From Candidatus Omnitrophica bacterium UBA6253 (GTDB taxonomy: Bacteria > Omnitrophota > Gorgyraeia > Gygaellales > Profunditerraquicolaceae): a stretch of 64,000 nucleotides of DNA. Made by a program: the position numbers and the translations under genes. The stretch lies in the NCBI GenBank assembly GCA_002441245.1, contig DJVP01000008.1:12593-76592 (forward strand), written 5' to 3'. Shown here one piece after another: positions 223 to 44,401 of the stretch. Position 1 is the first letter of the stretch, and each line of letters opens with the position of its first letter. The notes below the pieces were generated by a model. The model did no database searches. It saw only the letters and a list, made by a program, of their open reading frames with translations, and was not told the DNA's origin.

Positions 223-1354
223 TCTCTCCCCCCATATTCTTATTGTTTACCAAACGGCTTAAATATAATAAGATTAATAACCCCGAACCAAAAACCAAGA
301 AACCTAAAACGAAACTTTTTTGCATAATTAAACCACCTAGGCTTACGCCAATGCCTCCTGAGATAAAACGCACTCCGCTATTTAAACTGGCTGCTTCATT
401 TAAGAGTTCAGCCGGCAAATCTGCAAGCATAGTGGACAAACCCACATGATTAAACGTCCATCCCAGGCCCCAAACAATCATTATCAGGACAAGCAAACTT
501 AAGGGCAGTTTTATTAAAAACGAAAAAATACACATCACCATAAGGGCAATGCCTAAATTAACCACCTTTATCCGACCTACTTTGTCAGCCAAACGGCCGC
601 CCCAAACCTCGCCAAAAATACCGCTTAAGCTGGTTAGGGTAATCAACATACTGATATAAAACTGGTTTAAGTTTAGCTGGGTTGAAAAATACACCCCCAG
701 CCACTGTTGTACAGCATGATAAATTAAACTTATGAGAAAGATATAACTGAATATCTTAATAACCTTTTTATTCCTGAAAGCCTCTAAATAACCAAACCGG
801 AAATTACCTGTATCTTCTTTAAAACTGGGAAGGCAAATATACATAAATATCCAAAGTATAAATCCGCTTAGCGCCGGGATAATAAATATCAGCCTCCAGT
901 TGATTATCCCGCTAAGGAATAACCCTAATAAAGATGCCACAAATGTAGAACCAAAAAACAAGCCTATATATCGGCCGCGTTTTTCCTCATTCAGGCGCCT
1001 GGCGATTAAAATAAGGCCTAGTGGAATAACCGAGGCGCCAAATAACCCCATCATAAATCTGGCAACAAAGAGAGAAGCGATATTCTGAGAGATCCCCGCT
1101 AAAAGATTAGCCAAGGAAAACAGGAATATACAAACCAGCTCGACTTTACGGGCATCAAAGGCGCGCACCAATGGGCCGTAGAAGAATGCCGCCAGCCCAT
1201 ACGGGATCATATACAGCCAGATAATCCTGCCTACCACAAATTGAGAAAGAGCAAAATCAGCTGCAATAGACGGAATTAACGCGGCAGATGCAGCTACATT
1301 AAAAGACAGGACCGCTCCCTCTAAACAAAGGATAATAAATGTAGCCCTCTTCAC
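218..1354 (-). CDS. MFS transporter, candidate exporter
   Basis: 378 aa with about 12 hydrophobic helices and MFS-like loop motifs such as GRIIWLY and RRLNEEKRGR. Confidence 0.8.
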   Translation of the reverse strand: MKRATFIILCLEGAVLSFNVAASAALIPSIAADFALSQFVVGRIIWLYMIPYGLAAFFYGPLVRAFDARKVELVCIFLFSLANLLAGISQNIASLFVARFMMGLFGASVIPLGLILIARRLNEEKRGRYIGLFFGSTFVASLLGLFLSGIINWRLIFIIPALSGFILWIFMYICLPSFKEDTGNFRFGYLEAFRNKKVIKIFSYIFLISLIYHAVQQWLGVYFSTQLNLNQFYISMLITLTSLSGIFGEVWGGRLADKVGRIKVVNLGIALMVMCIFSFLIKLPLSLLVLIMIVWGLGWTFNHVGLSTMLADLPAELLNEAASLNSGVRFISGGIGVSLGGLIMQKSFVLGFLVFGSGLLILLYLSRLVNNKNMGGEI

Positions 1355-1791
1355 CTGGCCGCTTCTTTTTCAATAATCTCTTTAAAAATCTTTAGATTAT
1401 GCTGCGAGCCCTCATTTATGAAACCTTCAACCTGCTGGTCATTAAACTTGGCTTTTTCATCCATATGAAAATGCTGGATCCAGGTTAATTCAATACCTTC
1501 TGGCTTGGGAGTATACAACCAGATAATCTTCATATATTCAAAAGGTAATTTTGGGGCCTCGCGTTCAGCATAAGTGAAATAATTTTCCTTAAAAAGCAGC
1601 CTCCAGGACTGCCAGGACTTATCATCTTCATCCGTGAGGCGAAAAACTATTTTGTTAGCCTCTTTTTTGACCACCTCGGCTTTTTTATACTCTGTGCCGA
1701 ATAACTCTGTCCAACGCGGGATATCATTGGATACATCAAACACTAAATCATAAGGCGCGTTGATAATTATTGAATTGCACGTATGCCCCAT
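1351..1791 (-). CDS. SRPBCC polyketide aromatase/cyclase, TcmN/WhiE-ORFVI-like (Polyketide_cyc2)
   Basis: 146 aa. The N-terminus NSIIINAPYDLVFDVSNDIPRWTELF and the later FEYMKIIWLY and WIQHFHMD closely follow the pattern I recall for TcmN ARO/CYC ([26 protein letters not shown] ... AYMNLHWTY ... WVQEFDM). Confidence 0.7.
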   Translation of the reverse strand: MGHTCNSIIINAPYDLVFDVSNDIPRWTELFGTEYKKAEVVKKEANKIVFRLTDEDDKSWQSWRLLFKENYFTYAEREAPKLPFEYMKIIWLYTPKPEGIELTWIQHFHMDEKAKFNDQQVEGFINEGSQHNLKIFKEIIEKEAAR

Positions 1792-1904: not shown

Positions 1905-2705
1905 TTAATCTACAAGAGCGACAACCCGGGCCCAGGCGGCCCCGGTATTCTTAATCCGAATCGGAAAACAAATAACTTTAAAACCACAACCAGGAAGTTT
2001 CTCTAGATTAGCCAACCTTTCTATATGGATAAACTCCTTCTTGCGGCCGTAAAAATGCGCCGGGTAAAATGTTTTAGGATCATTTGTTTTTAAGAACTCG
2101 CTTAACATAAACCTATAAGGCCGGTCAATGCCCATAGTATCTACGCCGAATATTTTTATACCGGCCCCTAATAGAAACTCTATTGCAGACGGGTCAACCC
2201 CCGGATAATCTGAAAAATATCCTGGCCCACCATAAAGCTTATCCGCGCCAGTATGCAATAATACAATATCCAAAGGCTTAAGCTGGTATTTTATTTCCTC
2301 AAGCGCTGATTTTATATCATGCGCATTAATTACTTCATCTGGTTTTTTATGGGTCAGGTTTAATTTTACGCCGTTTTGATAACAATATTCCAGGGGAATC
2401 TCATCCGCTGTCTTTGATGGCCGGTTTTCTGTCTTTGAGCCATAATGGAAGGAATAATCCAGGTGGGTTCCTATATGCACCGGGGCATGCACAATCTCTA
2501 AAGACAGGAATTCCTTATCAGGCAGTTGCTCTTTCTTAATAATACGCATGCCTAATGCGTGTTTTATCTTGCCCAAAATTGTCTTGCCCATGATGACGCG
2601 GTTAAACTTGCCGACTCCGGCTTTATGGCTAACGCGCTCGATATCCACCTTGTGCACTTCAAAGGCCTTCTCGTCAATGGGCAGGCTCAGGTCAATAATC
2701 TTCAT
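1905..2705 (-). CDS. Cyclase-family protein (PF04199, 'putative cyclase', kynurenine formamidase-like fold)
   Basis: 266 aa. It has the HAPVHIGTHLDYSFH metal-binding His motif and the C-terminal GVDTMGID typical of this family. Confidence 0.75.
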   Translation of the reverse strand: MKIIDLSLPIDEKAFEVHKVDIERVSHKAGVGKFNRVIMGKTILGKIKHALGMRIIKKEQLPDKEFLSLEIVHAPVHIGTHLDYSFHYGSKTENRPSKTADEIPLEYCYQNGVKLNLTHKKPDEVINAHDIKSALEEIKYQLKPLDIVLLHTGADKLYGGPGYFSDYPGVDPSAIEFLLGAGIKIFGVDTMGIDRPYRFMLSEFLKTNDPKTFYPAHFYGRKKEFIHIERLANLEKLPGCGFKVICFPIRIKNTGAAWARVVALVD

Positions 2706-2932
2706 TTCGCTAATTTTGACTGTATAGTGCTGGCGATATCATTTATTGTTGAATTCTTGGTTATCTCTTTAATGTTAAGCTTTACCCCGAATGACTTCTC
2801 CAGGGCAATTACCGATTCCACCATTTCAGTAGAATCAACCCCGATGCTATTTTGCAAAGAAACATCGTCTTTGAGTTCTTCAATCTTTACTTTCAATAAA
2901 CTTGCTAATACTTCTTTAACTTTATCCTTCAT
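2702..2932 (-). CDS. Acyl carrier protein
   Basis: 76 aa, acidic, with GVDSTEMVE matching the ACP phosphopantetheine-attachment motif (DSL/DST). Its stop overlaps the cyclase gene start. Confidence 0.8.
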   Translation of the reverse strand: MKDKVKEVLASLLKVKIEELKDDVSLQNSIGVDSTEMVESVIALEKSFGVKLNIKEITKNSTINDIASTIQSKLAK

Positions 2933-2941
2933 CTACTCCTC

Positions 2942-4402
2942 CTATATCTGCACTTCGCCCTTGGTCGCGGCGGCTTCCCATTTATTAATACCGTTCATAA
3001 CATCCTGAAAGCAAAGTTTGGCCAGCGGATCAAAATTACTCTCCATAATACGGTTTATCCTTCCAGGCTTTGAAAAAAACTCACGCATACACCAAGAACC
3101 CAGCCTCCCTAAATCTTCCGTAGAAAGATGGTCTGTAGGGATTACCGGATGGAGAAAATCCCATTGGCTAAAGTCAACCTTCTTGGGATCGATCCAGTTT
3201 TTCTTTAAAGCAATCCTCCACATCGGAGAATTCGGGGCAGGAGTGACATAACCTACCCACAGGACATCCGGGTCCACCTGGTCAGTAAACTCAAAACGCT
3301 GTTTGACAATTTCTTCGGTATCATAATCAAAACCCATCATAATATCGGCGACAATTGCGATATCATTTTTACGAAACATCTCTATGGTTTTATTGATCTG
3401 GTCAATGGTAATGCCTTTGGCTATTTTCTTAAGCTCTGATTGAGTGGTAACCTCAATGCCAAAAACACCCATAAATAAACCGTTCTCTTTCATCAAAGGC
3501 AGGATAGATTCGCAATTAACCCAATCAATAGCCCGGCCTAAAGATACCCACTTAATCGGGTTATTAGATGCTTTCTTAAGTTCGCAAAATTTCTGCACTC
3601 TTTTAGGATCTACATTAAAATTATCATCCTGGATAACCACCACCTTAACCCCGTATTTTCTATGCAAAAGATTCAGTTCTTCCATTACCCTTTCTGGAGA
3701 TTTGGCGCGCCATTTTAAGAAATCCGATGGGGAGCGCGGGTCAAACTGGTCCCATTCATAACAAAAGGTACAGGCTGAAGGGCATCCTCGGGATGTAACC
3801 ATATCTACGAATGGTTTCCAATAAGTATGGCCTACATATTTATCCATCGGGAACAAATCATACGCCGGCAAAGGAAGTTTATCCAGATCTTGCATAAGCG
3901 GCTTATGCGGCCCCATAACAATTTTCCCATCAATACGGCAAGTAGCCCCGCCCACGTCGCCAAGCGGCTTATTTTTATCTATTGCCTCAATTAAATCCCC
4001 AAAGGATTCCTCCTCGCCCATAACCACAAAATCAACCGCGGGATTCTCCTCCAGCGTAGGCACAGGCATTGCCGAATACCATAACCCGCCAAAAATTATT
4101 TTTGTCTTAGGTAAAACTTTTTTAATCCCTATGGCCGCGTCTTTAAAATGACGCAAGACTCCATAGCCGCCATAACCGTGCAGCTGTTCACCCATAACTA
4201 CGATATCGGGATTCTTCATTTTTACCTGCTCAACCAGTTGTTCCATGGGTATTTGATCGGCCTTTCCGTCAATAACAGCTACATCTTCATAGCCTCTTTC
4301 ACGCACATACGCAGCCCAATGCGCATATAACTGGTTTGGAGATCTATGTATTCCATGAGTTGCCCAGGCACCGACTTTCGGCATAACAAATAATATCTTC
4401 AT
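2942..4402 (-). CDS. B12-binding-domain radical SAM protein, class B, candidate C-methyltransferase
   Basis: 486 aa. An N-terminal cobalamin-binding-like domain is followed by the radical SAM core CPSACTFCYEW (CxxxCxxC). Confidence 0.85.
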   Translation of the reverse strand: MKILFVMPKVGAWATHGIHRSPNQLYAHWAAYVRERGYEDVAVIDGKADQIPMEQLVEQVKMKNPDIVVMGEQLHGYGGYGVLRHFKDAAIGIKKVLPKTKIIFGGLWYSAMPVPTLEENPAVDFVVMGEEESFGDLIEAIDKNKPLGDVGGATCRIDGKIVMGPHKPLMQDLDKLPLPAYDLFPMDKYVGHTYWKPFVDMVTSRGCPSACTFCYEWDQFDPRSPSDFLKWRAKSPERVMEELNLLHRKYGVKVVVIQDDNFNVDPKRVQKFCELKKASNNPIKWVSLGRAIDWVNCESILPLMKENGLFMGVFGIEVTTQSELKKIAKGITIDQINKTIEMFRKNDIAIVADIMMGFDYDTEEIVKQRFEFTDQVDPDVLWVGYVTPAPNSPMWRIALKKNWIDPKKVDFSQWDFLHPVIPTDHLSTEDLGRLGSWCMREFFSKPGRINRIMESNFDPLAKLCFQDVMNGINKWEAAATKGEVQI

Positions 4403-4447: not shown

Positions 4448-5683
4448 CTATATACTGCCTTTTTCGACTACCAGGGCTGAATTGATCCCGCCGCGGCCGC
4501 GCGAGACAATCAAAGATTTATTTACCTTATATTCCCTGGCTTGCTTAGCCACATAATTTATGTCTCTTAGAACCGGAGTATCCAGATTCAATGTCGGAGG
4601 AATCAAACTATGTTCCATAGACAAAAGTGCAATAATCATATCCAGCGCTCCGGATGCTCCAAGAAGATTACCGAACATGGATTTCGGGCAACTCACAGGA
4701 ATATTTTTCAGGGCGTCTGCGAAAACTAACCTCAGCGCCTTGATTTCAGAATTATCCCAAAGATCAACTGCCAGCCCATCCAAACTTATATAGCCGATAT
4801 CTTCAGGTTTAGCTTTAGCGTCATTAAGCGCCATATTTATAGCCCGCGCCAATTCCTTGCCATCGGAAGCAGGATTAATCCTATCTACTCCGTCGCAAGT
4901 TGTACCATATCCGCTGATAAACCCCAGAATATTTGCCCCCCTGCTCCTGGCTCTCTGGATATTCTCCAACACCACAATACCCGAGCCCTCGCCGATGACA
5001 AAACCGCTGCGGCCTTTATCAAACGGCCGGTATGCAGCTTGAGGATCATCATTGCGGGTAGAAAGCGCCCCATATGTATTGCAACATAATAAGGCGTAAG
5101 GAGTAACCGGCGCTTCCATTCCTCCAGCTAAAATCAGGTTCAATTTGTTTTTATACAAAACCTTCCTGGCATAACCTAATGCCATAAGGGAACTTGCCCG
5201 GTCACTGACCATGGTCTTGCTGAATCCCTTTATGCCATAATAAATAGATACCTGGCCTTGGGGGGCAGCGGGAAACCAGGCAGAAGCCATATAAGGAGAA
5301 ACCCCCTCCCGACCTTCTAAATACAAATCCCTTAATTCTGTCTCGGCGTAAAGCCAGCCGCCGATGGCATTGCCCAAAAATATGCCAACAAGATTCGGAT
5401 CCTCATTTTTAATATCTATACCCGCATCCTGCAAGGCTAATTCTGAAGCAACCAGCGCCATATGCGAAAAGGCATCGATCTTCTTAAGCAGCCTTTCGGA
5501 TATATGGCTATACTTTTCCAAATCATCAATTTGCCCTGCTATGTGCGCCGGGTATTTTGAAGCATCAAAACGCGTAATTTCCTTAATAAAGGAACGGCCG
5601 CTTTTAATATTCGCCCAAAACTGCCGCTTACCAATACCCGAAGGGCTGACTACCCCTATCCCTGTAATTGCTATCTTTTCCAT
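4448..5683 (-). CDS. Ketosynthase-like protein without a catalytic triad (KS-beta or chain-length-factor-like partner)
   Basis: 411 aa with a thiolase fold. The active-site stretch TMVSDRASSLMALG has no Cys. The His positions read YISLDGLAV and GNLLGASGALD, so both His are lost. Its start overlaps the stop of the upstream KS at 5683. Confidence 0.8.
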   Translation of the reverse strand: MEKIAITGIGVVSPSGIGKRQFWANIKSGRSFIKEITRFDASKYPAHIAGQIDDLEKYSHISERLLKKIDAFSHMALVASELALQDAGIDIKNEDPNLVGIFLGNAIGGWLYAETELRDLYLEGREGVSPYMASAWFPAAPQGQVSIYYGIKGFSKTMVSDRASSLMALGYARKVLYKNKLNLILAGGMEAPVTPYALLCCNTYGALSTRNDDPQAAYRPFDKGRSGFVIGEGSGIVVLENIQRARSRGANILGFISGYGTTCDGVDRINPASDGKELARAINMALNDAKAKPEDIGYISLDGLAVDLWDNSEIKALRLVFADALKNIPVSCPKSMFGNLLGASGALDMIIALLSMEHSLIPPTLNLDTPVLRDINYVAKQAREYKVNKSLIVSRGRGGINSALVVEKGSI

Positions 5684-6945
5684 TACCCACCGAACCTTTT
5701 AAAAATTAAAGAAGAGTGTATCCCGGAAAAACCACTGCTGGTTTTAAGGATCATGTTTACCTTTTTCTCGATTGCCTGATTAGGTATATAATACAAATCA
5801 CATTGAGGGTCTTTTTCCTCCTGGTTTATTGTAGGAGGAAGGATATTTTTCTCAAAAATCATGCTGGCAATGGTCATCTCAATGGCATTTGCCGCAGCCA
5901 AGGGGTGACCAATCATAGATTTAAATGAACTGATGGGCAGCTTATAAGCATACTCCCCGAAAATCGCCTTGTAAGCACTGGTCTCAAAGATATCATTCAT
6001 CCGCGTGCTTGAGCCATGGGCATTAATATAATCAATATCCGCAGGTTTAACATCAGCGTCTTTTAGTGCCAGGGCAATGCAGGTTTCCATGGCTTGGCCA
6101 TCAGAAGGAAGGTCAGTCATATGAAAGGCATTACAGCTAGTGCCAAAGCCTAAAACTTCGCAATAAATCGGCGCGTTACGTTTTAGGGCATGGTTTAATT
6201 CCTCAAGCACCAGGAGCCCCGCCCCTTCACCTAAAACGAACCCATCCCGCTTATTATCAAATGGCCGCGATGCTTTTTGAGGCTCGTCATTATGCACAGA
6301 TAAAACATTCACTACATCAAATGCACCAAAGGTAATCGGAGTAAGCGGCGCCTCTGCTGCTCCGCAAATCATTATATCCTGTTCGCCATCCTGGATAGTC
6401 TCTAAACCAAACCCTAAAGAATCCGTGCCGGCAGTACATCCTGTAGAAATAGTATTGCAGATTCCCTTTAAGCCAAAACGTGCGCTGATTTCTATTGAAG
6501 GGGTATTAAACATCGCCGCGTCATAAAGGTCAGGCCGCACAAGAGCCGGCTCAATTGGCTTCTTGCCATCTTCGGTAACTAAAGCAAACTCTTCTTCCAT
6601 ATACTTAGTGCCGCAAATCGCATTTGCCAGACAAACTCCCACGCGCTGCGGATCTTCTTTTGAAAAATTTAATTTACTATCTTCAACCGCCATTTTACCG
6701 GCGGCTACTCCAAACTGAACATAGCGGTCCATACGTATAGCTTCTTTGTGGCTTAAGCCCAGCTTAAAAGGGTCGAAATCCCTGACCTGAGAGGCAATTT
6801 TTGTATTAAAAACCGATACATCAAAACCCTCGACTAAACGCACCCCAGATTTGCCGCCTGAAAAACCATCCCAGGCATTCTTTTTACCAATGCCGTTAGG
6901 AGAAATTATTCCAATACCAGTAATAACTACTCTGCGTTTAGACAT
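5683..6945 (-). CDS. Beta-ketoacyl synthase (KS-alpha or FabF-like) with an intact Cys-His-His triad
   Basis: 420 aa. It has ISTGCTAGTDSLGFG (Cys), INAHGSSTRMND (His) and SMIGHPLAAANAIE (His). Confidence 0.9.
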   Translation of the reverse strand: MSKRRVVITGIGIISPNGIGKKNAWDGFSGGKSGVRLVEGFDVSVFNTKIASQVRDFDPFKLGLSHKEAIRMDRYVQFGVAAGKMAVEDSKLNFSKEDPQRVGVCLANAICGTKYMEEEFALVTEDGKKPIEPALVRPDLYDAAMFNTPSIEISARFGLKGICNTISTGCTAGTDSLGFGLETIQDGEQDIMICGAAEAPLTPITFGAFDVVNVLSVHNDEPQKASRPFDNKRDGFVLGEGAGLLVLEELNHALKRNAPIYCEVLGFGTSCNAFHMTDLPSDGQAMETCIALALKDADVKPADIDYINAHGSSTRMNDIFETSAYKAIFGEYAYKLPISSFKSMIGHPLAAANAIEMTIASMIFEKNILPPTINQEEKDPQCDLYYIPNQAIEKKVNMILKTSSGFSGIHSSLIFKRFGG

Positions 6946-6948
6946 AAA

Positions 6949-7554
6949 TTATTTATTCTCCTTCACTCTTTTGACCTTAAAAATAATATTCCCGCCGTCA
7001 GGGCAGGTAACCGTATCAATTGAATCCGGGTCATTCATAAAGAAAAACTTTGCCCCGAAGTTTAAGGCAAACAATGCCGGGAACGCTGTATGAAAAGCCG
7101 CCCCGCAGAAACCAGGTATACATTTTAAACCTTGCGTCTCCCATTTATCGCCAACCTTATATCCAAAACTGCATCTGCCTTTTGCCTTAACCACTTCAAT
7201 AATCATCTTCTTAGGATTAGGGCCTTTGTGATCCGGATCACGGGGGATCACCTCAAGTTTGCCTTGCCTATCCAGGACTTCTGCCTTAAACTCCAATTTC
7301 CCTCCATCAGGGCAGGTAACTAATAACGAGCGCTGATTATCGCGGAACCCGAATTTCGCCCCGAAGCTTAAAGCGTATATTACCGGAAAAAGCGCATGCG
7401 CCAGGCCTAAACAAAAATGCTCCGGCGCATGGGTGAAATCCTCTAGGAAAATTTCATCCCCAACCTTGTACCCATGATAGCATTCACCAAAAACCTGGCT
7501 GACCGTAAGCTTTAATCTTGGGAAAGGAGTATTCACAGCTCTATTTTCGCTCAT
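6949..7554 (-). CDS. Tandem-domain TIGR04076-like protein, function unknown
   Basis: 201 aa made of two homologous halves of about 95 aa each: CYHGYKVGDE...FCLGLAHALFPV...FGAKF...VTCPDGGKLEFK and CSFGYKVGDK...FCGAAFHTAFPA...FGAKF...VTCPDGGNIIFK. Confidence 0.5.
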   Translation of the reverse strand: MSENRAVNTPFPRLKLTVSQVFGECYHGYKVGDEIFLEDFTHAPEHFCLGLAHALFPVIYALSFGAKFGFRDNQRSLLVTCPDGGKLEFKAEVLDRQGKLEVIPRDPDHKGPNPKKMIIEVVKAKGRCSFGYKVGDKWETQGLKCIPGFCGAAFHTAFPALFALNFGAKFFFMNDPDSIDTVTCPDGGNIIFKVKRVKENK

Positions 7555-8564
7555 TTTAATTTGGCAACTTTTTGAATTCTTTCAAATAACTCAGCTTTAC
7601 TATAAAACTTTTTACTTTTCTCAACCTCATGCACCATATCAACCAAGACGCTATTTAAAGGCGACTGAATATTATTTTTCCCGGCAAGACGCACAAATTC
7701 CCCGTTGATATAATCAATTTCTGAATTGCGCCCTCGCATAATACTTTGCAATATAGAGCCATAAAGCGGCTCCTTACTCAAATTTCTCATGGTTTGTGAA
7801 AAGATTTCTGCTGCTTGAGCAATCGGCAAAGAGGTTAACTTAACAACATTCTCCACAGGAAAACCCGGCAGGGAAACTAATTTTATGCCTGCCTTATCAA
7901 CAACACCAAGCGCCTCTTTCCAGATAGCAATACTTATATGGCTTATATCGTGGTCACTAAAAACCTCCTGCATGCTCTTACCTAATATCCCCGGCAGGCA
8001 GTTGTTAGCATTAGCGAATATTTTTAAAAACTTCATCCCGGTAATATCCTCGGCTATTATAACGGGAAATGCCTTATTTAAAACACGGCTTAAATCCGGT
8101 AATACTTCTGGATGCCTTCCATCAAAAGGCCAACCTATTATCCAGGGTCCTTCAAAATTATGCACCAGCTTGGCCGACTCCAAATAAGTGGAGCCGAACA
8201 TAACAATACTGGAAACTATATTTTCTTTAGGCAGTAATTTCGCAACAATGCTGTCCGCCTGCACGCCATTCTGGATAGTCAGAATTAATGCATTGCGAAT
8301 AAGGCTTAAGTTATTTTTTATGGCGTATTCAATATCCTGGGTTTTAGTCGCCAGGATCACTAGCTCCGGAGCATAATTAAGCTGTTCGGAAATATTGATC
8401 TTGACCCTAAAGGTTCCCCGTACACCGGATATCTGCAGTCCGTTTATTTTTATAGCTTCTATTGAATTCGTCCGGCCGACTAAAGATACATCCTGGCCTT
8501 CTAATTTAAGATAAGCGGCCACAAGACAGCCAATCGCACCCGAACCAATAACCCCTATATGCAT
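7551..8564 (-). CDS. Ketopantoate-reductase-family (PanE/ApbA) NAD(P)-dependent oxidoreductase
   Basis: 337 aa. N-terminal MHIGVIGSGAIGCLVAAYL Rossmann motif, with length and C-terminal domain typical of 2-dehydropantoate 2-reductase family ketoreductases. Confidence 0.7.
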   Translation of the reverse strand: MHIGVIGSGAIGCLVAAYLKLEGQDVSLVGRTNSIEAIKINGLQISGVRGTFRVKINISEQLNYAPELVILATKTQDIEYAIKNNLSLIRNALILTIQNGVQADSIVAKLLPKENIVSSIVMFGSTYLESAKLVHNFEGPWIIGWPFDGRHPEVLPDLSRVLNKAFPVIIAEDITGMKFLKIFANANNCLPGILGKSMQEVFSDHDISHISIAIWKEALGVVDKAGIKLVSLPGFPVENVVKLTSLPIAQAAEIFSQTMRNLSKEPLYGSILQSIMRGRNSEIDYINGEFVRLAGKNNIQSPLNSVLVDMVHEVEKSKKFYSKAELFERIQKVAKLK

Positions 8565-8566
8565 AG

Positions 8567-8845
8567 TTAACTCTGGCCTTCAGGAAAGCCGTATTTCTTG
8601 TAATCAAATCCATTTTGCTCTAAAAGACGGACCATCATGCTGTAAAAAGGCGATGGCACGTCAGAAAAAAAGGCGCTGACCACATCCTGCTCCTCTACCT
8701 GGGAGGATTTACGCAAAAGGGCATTATTTTGCGCCTGCTGAATAACCACTGACTCAGTAATCCGGCGGTGAAATACGGGGATCTTGGATATCAACAGTTT
8801 AAACTTTTCTTCAGTTTTAGTTTCCCAAACCATAACTGGCCTCAT
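8567..8845 (-). CDS. Hypothetical small protein, first ORF downstream of the PadR gene
   Basis: 92-aa ORF with no recognisable motif. It sits 3 nt upstream of the PanE-like gene. Confidence 0.35.
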   Translation of the reverse strand: MRPVMVWETKTEEKFKLLISKIPVFHRRITESVVIQQAQNNALLRKSSQVEEQDVVSAFFSDVPSPFYSMMVRLLEQNGFDYKKYGFPEGQS

Positions 8846-8880: not shown

Positions 8881-8902
8881 ATATAGTAAAATTTTACTAT
8901 AT
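8881..8902. promoter_or_regulatory. 22-bp perfect palindrome ATATAGTAAAATTTTACTATAT, a candidate operator
   Basis: An exact inverted repeat seen in the sequence. It lies between a sigma70-like promoter and the first cluster ORF, directly downstream of the PadR gene. Confidence 0.4.
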
Positions 8903-8913
8903 TTTATTTGATT

Positions 8914-8942
8914 ATTTTATAATCTAGCGCCATTTTTGTCAA
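8914..8942 (-). promoter_or_regulatory. Sigma70-like promoter: TTGACA, 17-nt spacer, TAAAAT
   Basis: Minus-strand read TTGACA AAAATGGCGCTAGATTA TAAAAT, with the -35 at 8937-8942 and the -10 at 8914-8919. This is sequence inspection only. Confidence 0.3.
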
Positions 8943-9029: not shown

Positions 9030-9545
9030 CTAAATCTCCTTGAGCAACGTATTAAGAAATTCCGATTCTGCCTGAAGCAGGCAAAGGTTGTGTTTCAGTA
9101 TGCGCAATAATGAAATTGAATTCTTCAGCTTCCTGGTTTTAAGTGTTTCTTCTATACTAGAGGATATCTTCTTTAATATCGTAAGCCTAGCAGCCAGGCG
9201 CCGACGGCTTAAAGCAGGTTTTAGATAATCCAGGAAATATAAACTTAGGTCTAAGCTGAATTGCGGACGTTTAAAGTTAAGCAGGCTTTTATTCAACAAT
9301 TCATCAAAGCGGTCTTTGCCTTTTTTGGTAAGGCGATAAACAAACCGCTCCGGCCTCTTGCCTTCTTTGCCGGCATGTTTATCAAGCAGGCCTTTTTTCT
9401 CTAAGACTTTCAATGGATAATATATGGATTTTAAATCAACCCCGGCAAAAAGAGAAAGGATTTGGCGTATCTTGATCTTAATTTCATAACCATGCCTGGG
9501 GCTTTGACGCAATAAACCTAATAATAAAAACTCCTGCTCAATCAT
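9030..9545 (-). CDS. PadR-family transcriptional regulator
   Basis: 171 aa. The N-terminal winged-helix stretch LLLGLLRQSPRHGYEIKIKIRQ...YYPLKVLEKKGLL is PadR-like. Confidence 0.85.
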   Translation of the reverse strand: MIEQEFLLLGLLRQSPRHGYEIKIKIRQILSLFAGVDLKSIYYPLKVLEKKGLLDKHAGKEGKRPERFVYRLTKKGKDRFDELLNKSLLNFKRPQFSLDLSLYFLDYLKPALSRRRLAARLTILKKISSSIEETLKTRKLKNSISLLRILKHNLCLLQAESEFLNTLLKEI

Positions 9546-24284: not shown

Positions 24285-25472
24285 CTATTCCAGGTAGGTA
24301 TAAATCTTGCCTTTATAATTACGCAGCACATATTTACCCTTGGCTTGAGAAAGAATATAATTCGGACCTATAGGAATCTTTCCGCCTCCACCCGGTCCAT
24401 CAATCACATAAGTCGGAACGGCATAACCTGAAGTATGACCGCGTAATTTCTCAATAATATTGATCCCGGTGGCTACAGGAGTGCGGAAATGCTGTGTACC
24501 CCTGACCGGATCGCACTGGTAAATATAATACGGCCTTACCCTTATCTGCAAAAGATCATGTACCAGGCGCCTCATAATATACGGCCGGTCATTAATCCCC
24601 TTGAGAAGTACTGACTGGCTGCCTAAAGGTACACCGGATTCCGAGAGCATATCACAGGCATTTTTACAGCGCTTGGTAATCTCTTTCGGATGATTAAAAT
24701 GTATACTCATCCAGATAGATGAATATTTCTTGAGCATATTCACTAGTTTATCCGTAATGCGCTGTGGAAGAGTAACCGGTATACGCGTGCCTATCCTTAA
24801 TAATTCAACGTGAGATATATCGCGAATTCTTGAAATCAGAGACTCCAAAACTTCATCCTCTAAAATAAGCGGATCGCCTCCTGAAATTAACACATCTCTT
24901 ATCTTGCGATTAGTTTTTATATATTCTATTGCCGCGTCAAATTTAGTTTCAGGGTTTAGCTCTTTTATTTCATGGTCTCCGACCAAACGTCTTCGGGTAC
25001 AATGCCGGCAATACATAGCGCAATGATCTGTAGCCAATAATAAAACCCTGTCTGGATACCGATGCACCAAATGAGGTACAGGAGAATCCCGGTCTTCAGC
25101 GCAAGGATCAGCCATCTCATGCGGGGAAACGGCGAATTCATCGCTAACCGGCACAGATTGCCTCCTTATAGGGCAATTCGGATCATCAACATCTATCAAG
25201 CTTGCCCAATAAGGAGTAATAGCCATAGCCAATCTCCCTCTGGCCTTATCAATCCCCTTTTCTTCCTGAGGAGTAAGCTTTATAATTTGAGTTAATTCTT
25301 CTTTGGTGCAAATCCTGTGCTTGAGCTGCCAATGCCAATCTTCCCAATCTAAAGGATTGACATCTTTATAAAGAGAAATTTGCTGATAATCCCGTGAACG
25401 CTTTGGCGGCCGCGGAATAACCGGTGTCTCAATCTGTACTTTTTGGCTTTCTAAACTTGAAGGATTGCTCAA
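24285..25472 (-). CDS. KamA-family radical SAM aminomutase (lysine 2,3-aminomutase-like)
   Basis: 395 aa. The CAMYCRHCTRRR CxxxCxxC cluster is in the KamA context, with the PLP-region GGDPL. Confidence 0.8.
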   Translation of the reverse strand: MSNPSSLESQKVQIETPVIPRPPKRSRDYQQISLYKDVNPLDWEDWHWQLKHRICTKEELTQIIKLTPQEEKGIDKARGRLAMAITPYWASLIDVDDPNCPIRRQSVPVSDEFAVSPHEMADPCAEDRDSPVPHLVHRYPDRVLLLATDHCAMYCRHCTRRRLVGDHEIKELNPETKFDAAIEYIKTNRKIRDVLISGGDPLILEDEVLESLISRIRDISHVELLRIGTRIPVTLPQRITDKLVNMLKKYSSIWMSIHFNHPKEITKRCKNACDMLSESGVPLGSQSVLLKGINDRPYIMRRLVHDLLQIRVRPYYIYQCDPVRGTQHFRTPVATGINIIEKLRGHTSGYAVPTYVIDGPGGGGKIPIGPNYILSQAKGKYVLRNYKGKIYTYLE

Positions 25473-26470
25473 TTTAGCCTTTTCCTTTCTGAGGCGCTTA
25501 TGAGTATTGCCTCAATAAGATCATCATATGCCATCCCTGCAGCATAAGCCATTATCGGAAAGTTAGATTCCTTGGGATCTAACCCCGGCAAGGGATTAAT
25601 CTCTAACACGTAAGGCGTATTAGTTTTATCCAAACGGATATCAGTGCGCGAAATATCCAAGCAGCCTACAGCGCGATGCGTGCGCAAAGCTACATCTTTG
25701 ACCTTCTCCTCAACATCTTTATCCAAGCGCGCAGGGCAATGAAATTCAGGGACTAATCCTAGTTCAGTATTGCCCTGAAATTCTTTCATTTTCCAGGAAT
25801 AAAAATATTCTCCGCTTTCTTTGCAATTAGAAAAGTCAATCTCCAGGATAGGCAGTACGCGTGTTTTTCCATTCTCCAAAATTCCCACCGTCAATTCTTT
25901 GCCTTCAATAAATTCCTCAACTAGGGCCTCTTGCCGGTATATATTTATACACTCTTTGACTTTTTTAAAAAGATCGTCTTTGCCATTGACCACATTTGTC
26001 TTATTTATACCCTTGGCCGATCCTTCGCAATTAGGCTTGACGATTAGCGGAAAAACCAGGTCTGCGGACAATTCTTCATCACCTTTTACAAAAAGCTGAA
26101 AATTAGGAGTAGGGATCCCCTCTGCCTTTAATATCTTTTTAGTTAAAGCTTTATTTAAGGCCAACGCTAACGAAAATGTATTGGATCCAGTATAAGGTAT
26201 ATTTAAATAATCGAGCACTGCAGGAACCTCGGATTCGCGGAAACGCCCATGCTTGCCTTCAGCTATATTAAAAACCATGTCCACGCTATTTTTCTTAAAA
26301 TAGGAAAACAGCGCCGGATACTCAACATCAATCCCCTCAACAGAATGCCCCTTATTCTTAAGCGCGCTGATCACAGAATTAATTGTCTCTTCGGAGTCAT
26401 ATTCAGAAAAATAATCAACCGGTTTCAAAGGATCCTTTTTTTTCAGGTTATAGGTCAAGGCAACTTTCAT
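25469..26470 (-). CDS. D-alanine--D-alanine-ligase-family ATP-grasp enzyme
   Basis: 333 aa with Ddl-like N-terminal, central and ATP-grasp C-terminal domains (EINPLPGL). It overlaps the KamA start by 4 nt. Confidence 0.7.
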   Translation of the reverse strand: MKVALTYNLKKKDPLKPVDYFSEYDSEETINSVISALKNKGHSVEGIDVEYPALFSYFKKNSVDMVFNIAEGKHGRFRESEVPAVLDYLNIPYTGSNTFSLALALNKALTKKILKAEGIPTPNFQLFVKGDEELSADLVFPLIVKPNCEGSAKGINKTNVVNGKDDLFKKVKECINIYRQEALVEEFIEGKELTVGILENGKTRVLPILEIDFSNCKESGEYFYSWKMKEFQGNTELGLVPEFHCPARLDKDVEEKVKDVALRTHRAVGCLDISRTDIRLDKTNTPYVLEINPLPGLDPKESNFPIMAYAAGMAYDDLIEAILISASERKRLN

Positions 26471-27460
26471 TTAATTTAAACCATTGCGGATAATGGCGCT
26501 ATTTAAAATCTTACCGACCATCTGTTCATAGGTGATGCCGATATTCTGGGCAACAAGCATAAAAACATCCTCGGTAGACAGAGAAGGCAATGGGTTAATC
26601 TCTAAAACATAAGGGTTACCGTTATTATCAACCCTGAAATCCACCCTGCCAAAATCCCGGCATTCTACACCGTTATAAACCCGTAAAGCTAAATCATTTA
26701 ATTTCTTTTTTAGTTCATGATTAATTTTAGCCGGACATATATACTCCAACCTGTCGGAAGTAATCCGCGCAAATGTATAGAACTTATCGTTTAATTTTAA
26801 TTTTCCGTCTATTTTAATCTGAACTACAGGCATAATTTCAGGATTTTCATTGCCAACAATAGCAACGGTGAATTCCTGCCCAGAGATAAATTCTTCAACC
26901 AAAGCCGGCTGCTTATATGTCTTAGTAATAAAATCAACCTGTTTTTTAAGTTCTTCCATATTTTCTACGCGAGAACTTTCACTCAATCCTTTTGATGAAC
27001 CTTCAAAACGCGGCTTTACAATTAACGGGAACTTACAGCGGGCATGATCAACCAAGGCATCCGCAGAGTTAACTTCAAAAAAATTTGGAGTAGGTATTCC
27101 TTCTGCGATAAAAATCTTCTTAGCCATAACTTTATCCAGTGTAAGCCCCAAGGTTAAAGCATCTGCCCCCACGAAGGGGATTTGCGCCATTTCAAGTAAA
27201 ACAGGAACCTGAGATTCACGGTTCCTGCCGGTAAGCCCTTCGGAAATATTAAAAACAATATCCACTCCCAGATTATCCATTTTCTCCAGCAGGTTAGTGG
27301 CATTACCTATTTTTTTCACCTTAAAGCCGTTTGCCGCAATAGCCTTACCGATAATATCAATAGTAGTAGGATGATCAAACTCCGCATTGGCATCCAGCGG
27401 ATCTCCTTTTTTAAACTTATAATCTGTTTTCAAGTCATAGGTTAAACCTACGGTTTTCAT
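26471..27460 (-). CDS. D-alanine--D-alanine-ligase-family ATP-grasp enzyme, tandem paralog
   Basis: 329 aa with the same architecture as 25469..26470 (EINPLPSL). It is directly adjacent to that gene. Confidence 0.7.
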   Translation of the reverse strand: MKTVGLTYDLKTDYKFKKGDPLDANAEFDHPTTIDIIGKAIAANGFKVKKIGNATNLLEKMDNLGVDIVFNISEGLTGRNRESQVPVLLEMAQIPFVGADALTLGLTLDKVMAKKIFIAEGIPTPNFFEVNSADALVDHARCKFPLIVKPRFEGSSKGLSESSRVENMEELKKQVDFITKTYKQPALVEEFISGQEFTVAIVGNENPEIMPVVQIKIDGKLKLNDKFYTFARITSDRLEYICPAKINHELKKKLNDLALRVYNGVECRDFGRVDFRVDNNGNPYVLEINPLPSLSTEDVFMLVAQNIGITYEQMVGKILNSAIIRNGLN

Positions 27461-37728: not shown

Positions 37729-38338
37729 ATTTGGGATTCTGTTTACGGCAATAATCTTTACCCAGTTTTACTAAAAGGGCGTGATATTCATTAAATAGTT
37801 TTGCATCATTTTTAAGATTACCCATAAAAATATCCTGAGCTTGTCCATAAGTAGCATTTTCTGCTAAAATGCGGTGACGGGAAAATATCCTTTTCGTATA
37901 AGCATCAATCACAAATACAGGCTTATTTAATGCATAAAGCAGGATTGAATCAGCGGTTTCCGGGCCGACCCCCTTAACCGCTAGTAATTGGCTGCGCAAG
38001 GCTGCTAAATCTTGAGAGCCCATACGTCTTATATCAGCCGAGTAAAATCTAAAGAAAAACCTAAGAAAATTTTTTATCCTTTCCGCCTTAATATTGTAAT
38101 ACCCGGAGCTTTTAATTAAATTCCCAAGCCTGCGGGATGAAAGTCTTAAAAGCCCTTTGGGATTCAAACATTTTCTCTCTTTAAGGGCAAAGATTGCTTT
38201 CTCTACATTAGCCCAATTAGTATTCTGCGTAAGAATTGCCCCTATAATCACTTCAAAACTACTATCTGCGGGCCACCAGTGCTGCGGGCCAAAATCAGAG
38301 TAAAGCCGTAAGAAGATTCGGTTTAATCTGCGCTTCAT
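37700..38338 (-). CDS. Endonuclease III-family HhH-GPD DNA glycosylase
   Basis: 212 aa. The HhH segment is VKGVGPETAD with the Asp further on. There are C-terminal Cys residues. Confidence 0.7.
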   Translation of the reverse strand: MKRRLNRIFLRLYSDFGPQHWWPADSSFEVIIGAILTQNTNWANVEKAIFALKERKCLNPKGLLRLSSRRLGNLIKSSGYYNIKAERIKNFLRFFFRFYSADIRRMGSQDLAALRSQLLAVKGVGPETADSILLYALNKPVFVIDAYTKRIFSRHRILAENATYGQAQDIFMGNLKNDAKLFNEYHALLVKLGKDYCRKQNPKCEICPLNGQ

Positions 38339-40269
38339 TATTTAAGCTCTAAAGGATTAATGCCGTAATAGGCAAAAATAGTATAAGCGGTTCCTGAAAC
38401 TGAACCAGTATGTTTACCTTTTGGCGTCATCCACCCATGCCCTGTATCTACATAATCCTGCGTGGCATAAGGCAGACATCCTTCACCCTGTCCAGATGGA
38501 GAGGGGCTGGAAATAATCATTTTACCTAACTGCCCGAGATAATTATCCGCTTTGTTCTGATAAACAGCAGCTTTGTCTGCTTCTCCTTTTTTAAGATAAT
38601 AATCTGCCATAATCTTAAATGACACAACCATCTGGGCTGTCCATTCACTTGAAACCACGCCCCCCCGGGAAACATTACGTTGCGGCGCGAAATCAAACCC
38701 CTGAATTTTAACTACCTGCCCACCCGGTCGGCTGAAATTAACCTCTACGCTGCAATTTTCTTCAACAAACTCCATAATCTTATCCGGGTCCATACCTATA
38801 CTCTTAAGCTTTGCCGGACCGATGGCAGCAATTGACCAGGCATAAGTATCTGTGGCAATAGTAGAATCACCTTTGCCGCGCTTAACCGGCAGGTCTTGCC
38901 TGTCATAAGTATGTTGCACCAACCAGCTTAGTGTTTTTTCCGCTGCCTGCTCATATTTATCCATATTAGTCACCCTGGCGAGCATTTTATAAAAAGCATA
39001 AGCATCCAAATGGTGTTCTGTAGAATACCAGCTCATCTGCGGCCCCCCGCGGATACCATTATCGGAATCAGAATTTTGTAACTTGATTATATTCTGGGCG
39101 ATCTCTTCTGCTATCCTTAAATATTTCTTATCACCGGTTGCCTGGGTATATTGAACGATAGAAAGCCCAAGCCAAATATTCGGCCCGCAATGCAACACAA
39201 ATTCCGCAGGAGCTCCATCATCAACATAATAAGCATTAAGAAACCACCCATCTTCCCGCTTGGCATCATTAGCAAAAAAATCAAGAATTTTCTTTGCACG
39301 GGAAAAATCTGAAAATTTATTATAAACTTGTATAAGCAAAGCCTGGTCATATAGAAATGCCCAACTGGCAATATCTTTATCTCCCTCAAAACTCATTACC
39401 AGGCCCGTACGAGGATTCTGACGAACCTTAAACCATTGATACATTTTATCCAAATTCGCTTTTTCCAAAACCACCTTTTTAGTCTCAAGGCGCAGCGATT
39501 CTGCTTGGACTGCCTTCTCATTTAATTGCAGGGCAACCAGCTTTGCCTGCAGGAGATCTCTTTCCTGGACAAGTTTTAAGATTACGCCATTTAATTCTTT
39601 TGTATTATCAACTACAGCTAAAGAGACCGATTCACTTTTCTTTTCAGAAACAGACTTAATTTGTGAAGCCAGCGTTTTGATCTTAACTTGCAAGACGGTT
39701 CTTTCCTGGGCTATCTGTTCTAGCTGCTGCTTCACAAGTTTGGACTCCTGCAATACCCCGACAAGCTCCTCAACAAGCATCTTATTCTTATGGGTCAGCT
39801 GTATATTTAAATATGCGCCAAACCCCAGAGATAAACTTAAAATTAAAATGGAGAGGGCTACAAAGGGAAGAAAAAGTTTCTTTGCCCAGGCATAACGTAT
39901 AAGCATATAATTCTGCCCCGGGTTAATCTTTTCATAATCCAGCCCCAGAAGATAGCGCTTTGTTAAACCGCCAATTTCTTTGGTCCAGGCCAAAGAAACC
40001 GATGCGCATACTGACTTTCCGCTCAATGGGATATCAATCTCTATAGCAAGTTTAACTTTTTTCTCCTGAATTAATTTGATCAACTCGGGCGAAAGATCAT
40101 TTACCGAAAGACAGATACCGCCATGCCCGATGTTATTAGTGAATCCTTGAACCCAAGGAGAAAGAGACTGTTTGCTATCTAAGCTTTCTAAACGGAACTG
40201 CACCGGCAAAACAGTATCCAAACGTATATATTTTCTGCGCTCTGCGCCTAAATTACTATGTTTCTTCAT
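38338..40269 (-). CDS. PilZ-domain, TM, coiled-coil, (alpha/alpha)6-barrel glycosidase-like fusion protein
   Basis: 643 aa. N-terminal RRKYIRL...DLSPELIK/NIGHGGI is PilZ-like (RxxxR ... D/NxSxxG). One TM helix and a coiled coil follow. The roughly 330-aa C-terminal domain has a six-hairpin glycosidase-like composition. Confidence 0.5.
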   Translation of the reverse strand: MKKHSNLGAERRKYIRLDTVLPVQFRLESLDSKQSLSPWVQGFTNNIGHGGICLSVNDLSPELIKLIQEKKVKLAIEIDIPLSGKSVCASVSLAWTKEIGGLTKRYLLGLDYEKINPGQNYMLIRYAWAKKLFLPFVALSILILSLSLGFGAYLNIQLTHKNKMLVEELVGVLQESKLVKQQLEQIAQERTVLQVKIKTLASQIKSVSEKKSESVSLAVVDNTKELNGVILKLVQERDLLQAKLVALQLNEKAVQAESLRLETKKVVLEKANLDKMYQWFKVRQNPRTGLVMSFEGDKDIASWAFLYDQALLIQVYNKFSDFSRAKKILDFFANDAKREDGWFLNAYYVDDGAPAEFVLHCGPNIWLGLSIVQYTQATGDKKYLRIAEEIAQNIIKLQNSDSDNGIRGGPQMSWYSTEHHLDAYAFYKMLARVTNMDKYEQAAEKTLSWLVQHTYDRQDLPVKRGKGDSTIATDTYAWSIAAIGPAKLKSIGMDPDKIMEFVEENCSVEVNFSRPGGQVVKIQGFDFAPQRNVSRGGVVSSEWTAQMVVSFKIMADYYLKKGEADKAAVYQNKADNYLGQLGKMIISSPSPSGQGEGCLPYATQDYVDTGHGWMTPKGKHTGSVSGTAYTIFAYYGINPLELK

Positions 40270-42887: not shown

Positions 42888-44401
42888 CTAGAATTTTAAC
42901 TCTACATAAAACTCAAACTGGTAGGCATTGTTTGCCGATCCATCGCCGCGCAAATAAGGACTAAATAAACTCCCGTCTGTATCATCGCGTTTTTCTTTAT
43001 AGAATTTCCCGGGATAAAACACCCACCCAGGAAACCAATGGTCATATGCTCGCTTGCCTTATAATCAATATAAATATCCACCTCATAACCTAAATCCCGG
43101 GAAAGGTATTTTCCTTGACCATCTAAAGTCCCCACGGGCCGGCTAAAGGAACTCAAATAATATCCATAAAGACTTATACAAAGCTTATCCGTAAAATTAT
43201 AGTCGAATCCGACTGAAGGCATAATCAGGTTTTCAAAATCCCCCGAAGAAAACGTACCCGGGCGCGGGACTCCATAATTTAAGCCATAGCCACCTCCCAT
43301 TGCTACAATGGGAAGCATATCTACATTACTGCTGCTTATCGTATCCCCTAAATTCATATTAGTAGGGGAATAATAGCTAAAGGCGCGATTCTTGCTTCCG
43401 GGATACAAAGTATCCTTGTTTTCCGCCATTTCCGGAGTAGTCTTATTTCCGGAACAAAGCAGGAATTGCAACTCCGGGACGAAGTTGCCAAAGGTGTAAT
43501 CTAACCCGGAATAAAACATGTACCCTGTATGCCGAATATCCTTATAATCACTATCCTGACTCTGGGCATAACCAAAGTTATGCGCAGCTTCTAATTTTAA
43601 TGTAAAATCATCGGCTGCATACTCCCAGGCAGTCCCAAAAGTACCCAGCAAGTCTCTTTTTATGCGAGCAGTAAAAAGATTGTCTCTTTTGCCATTAGAA
43701 GTATAATCTGCCAGCATGCCTACATACGGCCAAAAGGTCTGTTTGCCCACGGCAATCTTAACATCTGTGGCAAAAAAATTAGCCGCATTGGGTTCATATT
43801 TTTGCCCCTGCTCTTCTTCCTGTTTAATATGGGGTCCTAAATGATTTTTATAAACTAAATCTGGGCGGCAATAATAAAGTCGCCAAAAATAATTTTGCGC
43901 CTCTTGATAAAGGCTGACTCCGTAATTTTCATAACCGCCATTTAGACTAAAGCCATTTCCTACTTCATAAACATACATCCCGGTCTTAAGGCCAAAATTG
44001 CCCCAAAGTTTATTATCTAACCAAAGCTCCTCAACCTGAGGCAGTAATTCTGTGTTACGGTATTTCTCTACCCTTCCTCCGGAGTTAATCAATGTGTTAT
44101 GAATAAAAATTGGAGCGCTGTAATCGTATGGCCCGTTACGTTCCAGCTTAATATAAAATTTATTTCCTGAATCTTTAAAATCAGCACTGAAGGCAAAACT
44201 ATAATCAATGCCTAAATAAACAGTGTGGTCATCTTTATTATGGCTGTCTAAATCTACTACGTTCTTAAAACTTACCAGGTCCGCGCGAAAGTAAGTATCT
44301 ATCCCCAAAGCTAATTGTTCCGTATTAAACAATTCATAGCTATGTGCCTTGGCTATAAGATTAAGGATTATAATCAAAGAAAGTAAAACTTTCTTTATCA
44401 T
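42888..44401 (-). CDS. Outer-membrane beta-barrel protein; apparent frameshift near its 3' end
   Basis: Has a signal peptide and an aromatic-rich alternating sequence. The annotated frame ends ...PTSLSFM. The +2 frame over the last 150 nt reads ...SPYLRGDGSANNAYQFEFYVELKF*, which is a classic OMP C-terminal beta-signal. Confidence 0.5.

Follow-up and report, generated by a model that had tools for sequence, protein, structure and literature searches.

A stretch of 64,000 nucleotides from Candidatus Omnitrophica bacterium UBA6253 (contig DJVP01000008.1; hereafter the window) carries on its minus strand, at 4448-5683, a ketosynthase (KS)-like gene which very probably encodes the chain-length factor (CLF, or KS-beta) of a type II aromatic polyketide synthase (PKS), of a deep-branching type outside the actinobacteria, exemplified by the Clostridium cluster of the clostrubin producers. 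All three residues of the catalytic triad are replaced in its product. Such a loss is normal for CLF-type partners and in that respect the finding is largely ordinary; the sole real departure from the canonical CLF picture is an Arg in place of the conserved Gln. The features of the gene are:

4448..5683, minus strand: probable CLF (KS-beta), 411 aa, with R162, D302 and N339 at the triad positions and Lys334 kept
5198-5200, 4778-4780, 4682-4684 and 4667-4669, minus strand: codons of R162, D302, K334 and N339, respectively
Residues W110, A113 and L117: equivalents, by alignment, of the CLF tunnel-gate residues

The open reading frame (ORF) is intact and opens with an ATG overlapping by one base the TAA that ends the KS ORF upstream, 5683-6945 (gggTAATGgaa). 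The first-pass annotation had described a thiolase-fold KS homologue translationally coupled to an active upstream KS, and both points are borne out, the former by two Pfam ketoacyl-synthase domains across the full 411-aa protein (N-terminal, 4e-45; C-terminal, 3e-26; spanning residues 1-367) and the latter by the stop/start overlap and by the intact triad and Lys of the upstream KS. The register of the active site was fixed by phmmer alignment to the FabF proteins of Listeria and Bacillus subtilis, with which three independent MAFFT alignments agree. The active-site Cys of FabF and of other KSs is absent and Arg162 aligns with it (tvtaCat in FabF versus mvsdRas), the first His is replaced by Asp302 (inaHgts versus islDgla) and the second by Asn339 (tGHtlg versus fGNllg), and K334 is the retained catalytic Lys. 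The annotation was thus right that the whole triad is replaced and that Asn stands at the second His position, while its Leu at the first was one residue off; it had left the nucleophile site as Arg or Ala, of which Arg stands and Ala falls. Realignment guided by hidden Markov models (HMMs), which it had itself set as the test of its register, shows Arg162 at the nucleophile position, neither Cys nor Gln. The AlphaFold2 (AF2) model of the monomer is confident (predicted local distance difference test, pLDDT, 89.8; predicted template-modelling score, pTM, 0.91), residues 110-140 alone being uncertain, and in Foldseek searches of the Protein Data Bank (PDB) it matches FabF with a template-modelling (TM) score of 0.96 and the actinorhodin (act) CLF with 0.93-0.95.

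In a neighbour-joining (NJ) tree of 410 aligned columns, built without bootstrap or other support values, the 411-aa protein groups with the relative P0121 and the Nitrospirota CLF, sister to the CLFs of Clostridium and Leptolyngbya, and the act CLF falls in the same clade. The four partner KSs cluster with the act KS and with AntD, the KS of the Photorhabdus anthraquinone PKS, to form a KS-alpha clade, and the FabFs lie outside. Since the tree carries no support values, we regard the placement within the CLF clade as moderately strong. The best phmmer match outside FabF is the act CLF at 268 bits, as against 235 bits for the act KS; among solved structures the upstream KS scores 370 bits with both AntD and the act KS-alpha, and at most 361 with FabFs. 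An AWF[PY] motif, AWFYA in the act CLF and AWFPA here, is invariant in alignments of the Arg-type relatives and is not present in the aligned KS-alpha or FabF sequences. Natural fusions of about 800 aa also occur, in which an N-terminal Cys-His-His KS is followed by a KS-like domain at the C-terminus without the triad (T/D/R/H or R/S/K/D, for instance, at the nucleophile, first His, Lys and second His positions); they lend Rosetta-stone support to a physical pairing of KS and CLF in the gene order of the window. The NCBIfam fabF model TIGR03150 gives 378 bits, under its equivalog cut-off of 493.75 bits, and this score together with the missing triad places the protein outside FabF.

In canonical actinobacterial CLFs the place of the Cys is occupied by a conserved Gln. 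A search of a representative library was dominated by multi-domain megasynthases and left only about 30 usable single-domain matches. Among these 50%-identity representatives Arg occupies the Cys site in 16 of 29 single-domain relatives (34-57% identity), usually as D-R-A-S/G, with D, E, A, H or N at the first His position and H, N, S or D at the second. Across the alignments, sister lineages show Ser, Ile, Thr, Met, Lys or Ala in place of the Arg. Relatives of 55-100% identity, collected in a second search, read mostly R/D/K/N, and separate subgroups show S/N/K/N (Nitrospirota), R/D/K/H (myxobacterial) and R/E/K/H (Clostridium and Leptolyngbya). The equivalent of Lys334 is invariant in all relatives, and the residue preceding the Arg is nearly always acidic. 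One Nitrospirota-type relative of the S/N/K/N subgroup, P0278, has a Cys at the nucleophile position (D-C) with Asn at both His positions, which is either a reversion or a Cys retained in an otherwise dead site. In these alignments Arg, as D-R-A-S, is the commonest state in a broad, deep-branching, mostly anaerobic clade of non-actinobacterial CLFs. As Arg is the majority residue there, Gln marks the actinobacterial subgroup and not the CLF family as a whole, and the tolerance of other residues in sister lineages argues against an essential catalytic role for the Arg.

Within the phylum the state of the pocket is fixed. All 120 database homologues from Candidatus Omnitrophota (81-100% identity) have R162, D302, K334 and N339, and so do 79 orthologues from distinct GTDB species of Omnitrophota, each of which has an intact full-length ORF. 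In these 79 species 42% of the sites are invariant, conservation peaks in residues 91-165 and 331-345, and AWFPAAPQGQVSIYYG and SCPKSMFGNLLGASG are invariant stretches. In the best 80 loci of a scan of genome contigs, all from different Omnitrophota species, the CLF is 76-95% identical to that of the window, and the cassette from the 92-aa gene through the SRPBCC gene is syntenic in approximately 58-74; its occurrence beyond the phylum is read from the gene contexts of four further loci. Median amino acid identity to the window proteins is 81% for the CLF, 84% for both the KS and the TIGR04076 protein, 90% (the operon's highest) for the B12-binding radical S-adenosylmethionine (SAM) enzyme and 82.5% for the neighbouring housekeeping protein AccA, whose gene adjoins the operon in about 27 loci. 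Pairwise ratios of nonsynonymous to synonymous substitution rates (dN/dS), approximate values given that dS is close to saturation, are 0.03-0.06 for the CLF, 0.025-0.04 for the KS, 0.03-0.07 for AccA and about 0.02-0.04 for the B12-radical-SAM gene, the slowest-evolving of the operon. The CLF gene is under purifying selection, at roughly the level of the KS and AccA.

The CLF gene is the fifth of ten in a tightly packed minus-strand operon (gaps of -4 to +113 nt), in the order DUF2621-like, ApbA/PanE-like, TIGR04076, KS, CLF, B12-radical-SAM, acyl carrier protein (ACP), PF04199, SRPBCC and major facilitator superfamily (MFS) gene. The other members are:

8567..8845, minus strand: 92-aa protein, first gene of the operon, with weak DUF2621 similarity and a homologue (44% identity) in the Nitrospirota cluster
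7551..8564, minus strand: ApbA/PanE-family NAD(P)-dependent reductase, kept in the Nitrospirota (L083) and L086 cassettes
6949..7554, minus strand: tandem TIGR04076-family protein, two repeats of about 90 aa, each ending in a TCPDGG motif
5683..6945, minus strand: active KS of KS-alpha type, 420 aa, with Cys170, His310, Lys342 and His347 and the motif STGCTAGTDSLG; its stop overlaps the CLF start
2942..4402, minus strand: B12-binding radical SAM enzyme, BchE/HpnJ-like, under all NCBIfam equivalog cut-offs
2702..2932, minus strand: ACP, 76 aa, attachment motif GVDS (Ser34)
1905..2705, minus strand: PF04199 'putative cyclase' of 266 aa with the motif HIGTHLDYSFH and 45% identity to its counterpart in the Clostridium cluster
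1351..1791, minus strand: SRPBCC polyketide cyclase/aromatase-like protein (TcmN-type), 146 aa
218..1354, minus strand: MFS transporter, probable exporter, whose gene closes the operon and is found in about 41 of the 80 related loci

The catalytic residues of the KS lie in the motifs STGCTAG, AHGSST and KSMIGH. A dedicated ACP, the PF04199 cyclase, a family which we take to be of the OxyN/DpsY type, and the SRPBCC gene share the operon of the CLF, an arrangement kept in 58-63 of the 80 species. By domain annotation the operon holds no FabZ, FabG or FabI, and there is neither FabZ nor a phytoene-desaturase homologue (PDH) in it that would place it with the amxFabFmut type discussed below. TIGR04076 domains, of about 90 aa, Cys/His-rich and ending in TCPDGG, occur in all KS-CLF clusters of the clade (6949-7554, minus strand, in the window; 11260-11787 in L081; 3224-3861 in L083; 7029-7619 in L086), in tandem in the operon of the window, as two separate genes in Nitrospirota and fused to the ACP in the Clostridium cluster; the existence of the ACP fusion suggests that the domain acts on the carrier-bound chain. 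The B12-radical-SAM protein matches TIGR04072 weakly and has a 51% identical counterpart in another lineage (L086, 2366-3832); the enzyme could carry out an oxygen-independent tailoring, methylation or oxidation, of an aromatic polyketide.

We propose that translational coupling would let the CLF be made 1:1 with the upstream KS-alpha, with which it would form a pseudo-symmetric heterodimer where the KS alone, and not the CLF, performs condensation. A helix-loop-helix of the CLF (approximately residues 106-150) would close the far end of the acyl tunnel of the KS, and the depth of the tunnel would set the number of malonyl units in the ACP-bound poly-beta-ketone; speculatively, the smaller gate residues A113 and L117 might permit a longer chain. 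Besides the natural fusions, this interface segment, strongly conserved yet modelled with low pLDDT, speaks indirectly for such a heterodimer. The PF04199 and SRPBCC cyclases would then fold the chain, which would be tailored by the ApbA-like reductase, the B12-radical-SAM enzyme and the TIGR04076 protein and exported by the MFS pump. Most likely Arg162, Asp161, Asp302, Lys334 and Asn339 form a fixed polar plug in a vestigial, non-catalytic pocket.

Several observations weigh against this assignment. The Gln of canonical actinobacterial CLFs is not found, Arg162 standing in its place. FabFs slightly outscore the act CLF by sequence (295 versus 268 bits), on account of which the CLF placement depends on the simple NJ tree, and Foldseek does not separate CLF from FabF, all KSs giving TM scores of 0.93-0.96. 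The vestigial active-site loop SCPKSMFGNLLGASG is 100% conserved, more than a mere plug would need. The conservation of the operon is at housekeeping level in at least 60 species, which is atypical of a secondary-metabolite PKS. To our knowledge none of the Omnitrophota clusters has been linked to a product, and the Clostridium CLF to which we compare ours (P0128) is probably, by organism and context, the ClrB of clostrubin biosynthesis.

The conserved loop also sustains an alternative, in itself unlikely, namely that the CLF retains a non-condensing catalysis, either malonyl-ACP decarboxylation for chain initiation or acyl transfer, with Arg162 binding the malonyl carboxylate and Lys334 and Asn339 polarising the thioester. 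Such a role would agree with the family-wide invariance of Lys334, with the 100% conservation of the SCPKSMFGNLLGASG loop and of D-R-A-S in 79 species, with Arg as the majority residue over approximately 35-100% identity and with the decarboxylase role that the literature gives to the CLF Gln. However, the nearest sister group, that of Nitrospirota, has Ser, and others have Ile, Thr, Met, Lys or Ala, so that Arg is dispensable for the function of the family; both His residues required for KS-type decarboxylation are lost; and the defunct tunnel of amxFabFhet lacks access to the active site and is not predicted to attract ACP. As the pocket loops are perfectly conserved, a residual function of the pocket, for instance malonyl binding or decarboxylation, stays with us as a minor rival.

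It is quite improbable that the two genes form a fatty-acid-type KS/CLF pair, similar to amxFabF2/amxFabFmut, serving a specialised membrane lipid whose acyl chain is remodelled by the B12-radical-SAM enzyme. The anammox Cluster I does bring together a B12-radical-SAM enzyme, an ACP and two FabF homologues, one active and the other triad-less, the operon is conserved at housekeeping level in at least 60 species, accA is adjacent in about 27 loci, and the top NCBIfam scores of KS and CLF are both with fabF models. Yet the operon encodes two polyketide cyclase families (PF04199 and SRPBCC) and no FabZ, FabG or FabI; the KS is nearest to KS-alpha proteins; the FabF-like heterodimer chains 9s5h_B and 9s5h_C, possibly the anammox pair, give the CLF 215 and 186 bits, below the 268 of the act CLF; the core genes are all homologous to those of the Clostridium aromatic PKS cluster; and most loci are without the accA linkage. 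A ladderane- or fatty-acid-synthase-type heterodimer, suggested by the weak TIGR04072 match of the radical SAM protein and by the 2026 anammox preprint, is rejected as the primary explanation in view of the cyclase pair, the affinity of the KS to KS-alpha and the relationship of the core genes to those of Clostridium. A decaying KS duplicate without function of its own, for which the loss of all three catalytic residues might speak, can practically be dismissed, as the dN/dS of the CLF equals that of the active KS and AccA, which rules out a pseudogene, 79 species keep an intact full-length ORF with 42% invariant sites and the AF2 model is confident.

Ahead of the operon we noticed two further elements:

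8883..8942 region, minus strand: putative promoter close to consensus, with -35 TTGACA at 8942-8937, a 17-nt spacer and -10 TAAAAT at 8919-8914
8883-8900, minus strand: perfect 18-bp palindrome ATAGTAAAATTTTACTAT, just 3' of the promoter and ahead of the operon

The 16-bp core of the palindrome is found without a mismatch in 62 of 80 Omnitrophota species, as a single copy in each locus and always at the same position, amid flanking non-coding sequence that is not conserved, and the palindrome is probably the operator of a dimeric regulator. A PadR gene (9030-9545) adjoins the operon in just about 28 loci. An Rfam scan of the entire window returned three tRNAs only, and no riboswitch, cobalamin or other, ahead of the operon. 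Elsewhere in the window a radical SAM gene resembling lysine-2,3-aminomutase precedes two tandem ATP-grasp genes of the D-Ala-D-Ala-ligase family (24285-27460, minus strand), surrounded by housekeeping genes (EF-G-like, PurH, MnmE and GTP cyclohydrolase I), and two long minus-strand ORFs, 38338-40269 (643 aa) and 42902-44401 (499 aa), are without Pfam match at E <= 1e-6.

The replacement of Gln by Arg is common to a large non-actinobacterial clade that includes the experimentally productive Clostridium system. Gln as an actinobacterial trait bears on the detection of CLFs by HMMs and on the debate about its part in chain initiation. The cassette of KS, CLF, ACP and two cyclases with TIGR04076, ApbA-like reductase and B12-radical-SAM genes is common to several phyla, and small, soluble-looking KS-CLF pairs from anaerobes offer material for the long-standing problem of type II PKS reconstitution. 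The more intriguing leads lie at the level of the operon, in its phylum-wide conservation in anaerobes, its recurrent accessory genes and the operator-like palindrome. The evolution of the Omnitrophota cassette is as slow as that of AccA, a hint that its role is physiological and not that of an antibiotic. A doubtful extension, which we put forward tentatively, is that the operon constitutes a core pathway, inherited vertically throughout the phylum Omnitrophota, for a housekeeping aromatic polyketide, for example an anthraquinone-like redox carrier. If this is true, the close cassettes of Nitrospirota and other anaerobes would belong to the same picture, the BchE-like B12-radical-SAM enzyme, TIGR04076 and the aldehyde:ferredoxin oxidoreductase (AFOR) of the relatives would carry out, independently of oxygen, the tailoring that falls to oxygenases in aerobic type II pathways, and the invariant Arg-type CLF and the 18-bp operator would be parts of a tightly regulated primary-metabolic module.

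Compared with known systems, FabF has the same fold and 34-38% identity to the CLF but is a homodimer with Cys-His-His. ApeC, the CLF of aryl-polyene systems, is likewise a non-catalytic KS partner in a type II system; it is however about half the size, with a single thiolase half-domain (PMC8358021), and set beside this description the 411-aa protein has both thiolase halves, which rules out an aryl-polyene CLF identity. The anammox protein amxFabFmut is triad-less as well, with Val/Thr at the Cys site and Asn/Glu/Cys at the His sites, and its helix-loop-helix 110-140 is disordered in the homodimer crystal and ordered in the heterodimer, where it lines the substrate tunnel of the partner (Barends-lab preprint, bioRxiv 10.64898/2026.05.19.726425); the same segment is the one which AF2 leaves uncertain in our CLF. 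Inactive alone, amxFabFmut pairs with an active homologue encoded next to it in a heterodimer resembling KS/CLF, and its cluster similarly contains an ACP and a B12-radical-SAM enzyme. It differs in gene order, with the inactive gene upstream and not, as in the window, downstream of its active partner, and in its fatty-acid-like context (FabZ and a phytoene-desaturase homologue) without cyclases. By sequence the nearest relatives are not amxFabFmut but CLFs of PKS clusters with cyclases.

The act CLF (ActI-ORF2; its sequence was recovered through a relative that HMMER aligned to chain B of PDB 1TQY) reads alvaeQagg (Gln161), vvfaDgagv (first His to Asp) and vpKtttgRlysg (Lys kept, second His to Arg). 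Like the CLF of the window it is triad-less with only the Lys kept, has Asp for the first His in an xDGxxV context, and possesses the AWF motif and an acidic residue ahead of the nucleophile position; the two differ in Gln161 versus Arg162, in Arg versus Asn at the second His and, by alignment, in the gate residues (F109/T112/F116 versus W110/A113/L117). Its source is actinobacterial and aerobic, with a short-chain dehydrogenase/reductase (SDR) ketoreductase and oxygenase tailoring. The first-pass annotation had assumed a better-preserved pocket in classical CLFs, which the Gln/Asp/Arg of the act CLF, with Lys alone kept, contradicts. Nor is a triad-less partner unusual, as it had supposed: the act CLF and amxFabFmut are triad-less, the same preprint states as much of ActB and Iga12, and partners with Arg at the site are common among the 50%-identity representatives. 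Its broader reading of a non-condensing, CLF-type KS-fold partner is upheld by the coupling, the position in the CLF clade of the tree, the AWF[PY] signature and the natural KS-CLF fusions.

The CLF of Clostridium beijerinckii/C. puniceum (P0128, WP_077837155.1; the named members of its 90% cluster are all C. beijerinckii or C. puniceum proteins) is 43% identical to that of the window and shares with it the full-length KS fold, the position directly 3' of the KS gene, the Arg in D-R-A-S and the Lys; it reads R/E/K/H, with Glu at the first His and the second His retained, as against R/D/K/N. The Clostridium locus runs KS, CLF, TIGR04076-ACP fusion, PF04199 cyclase and SRPBCC, all homologous to genes of the window operon. 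It is without the B12-radical-SAM, ApbA-like reductase and DUF2621-like genes, has KASIII, phosphopantetheinyl transferases (PPTases) and hydrolases instead, and is a sporadic secondary-metabolite cluster, unlike the phylum-wide operon of Omnitrophota. In Leptolyngbya the core is accompanied by O-methyltransferases and an ABM oxygenase. AFOR genes lie inside related cassettes (L083, 376-2277; L086, 3851-5824 and 13177-15156), and none is found in the Omnitrophota operon. A Nitrospirota metagenome-assembled genome (L083) carries DUF2621-like, AFOR, ApbA, two single TIGR04076 genes, KS, CLF and ACP, together with cyclase, SRPBCC and flavin mononucleotide (FMN) reductase genes; the CLF of L086 is 58% identical, reads R/D/K/N and is accompanied by the same B12-radical-SAM enzyme (51% identity) and MFS pump. 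ClrB, the CLF of the clostrubin producers, has been assigned to an 'ancestral' CLF clade (Ishida et al., PMC7693217), the KS-CLF-ACP-cyclase architecture is described in the literature as ancestral for type II PKSs, and Candidatus Omnitrophica already figures among the phyla with KS-CLF pairs in a 2023 catalogue (PMC10132072).

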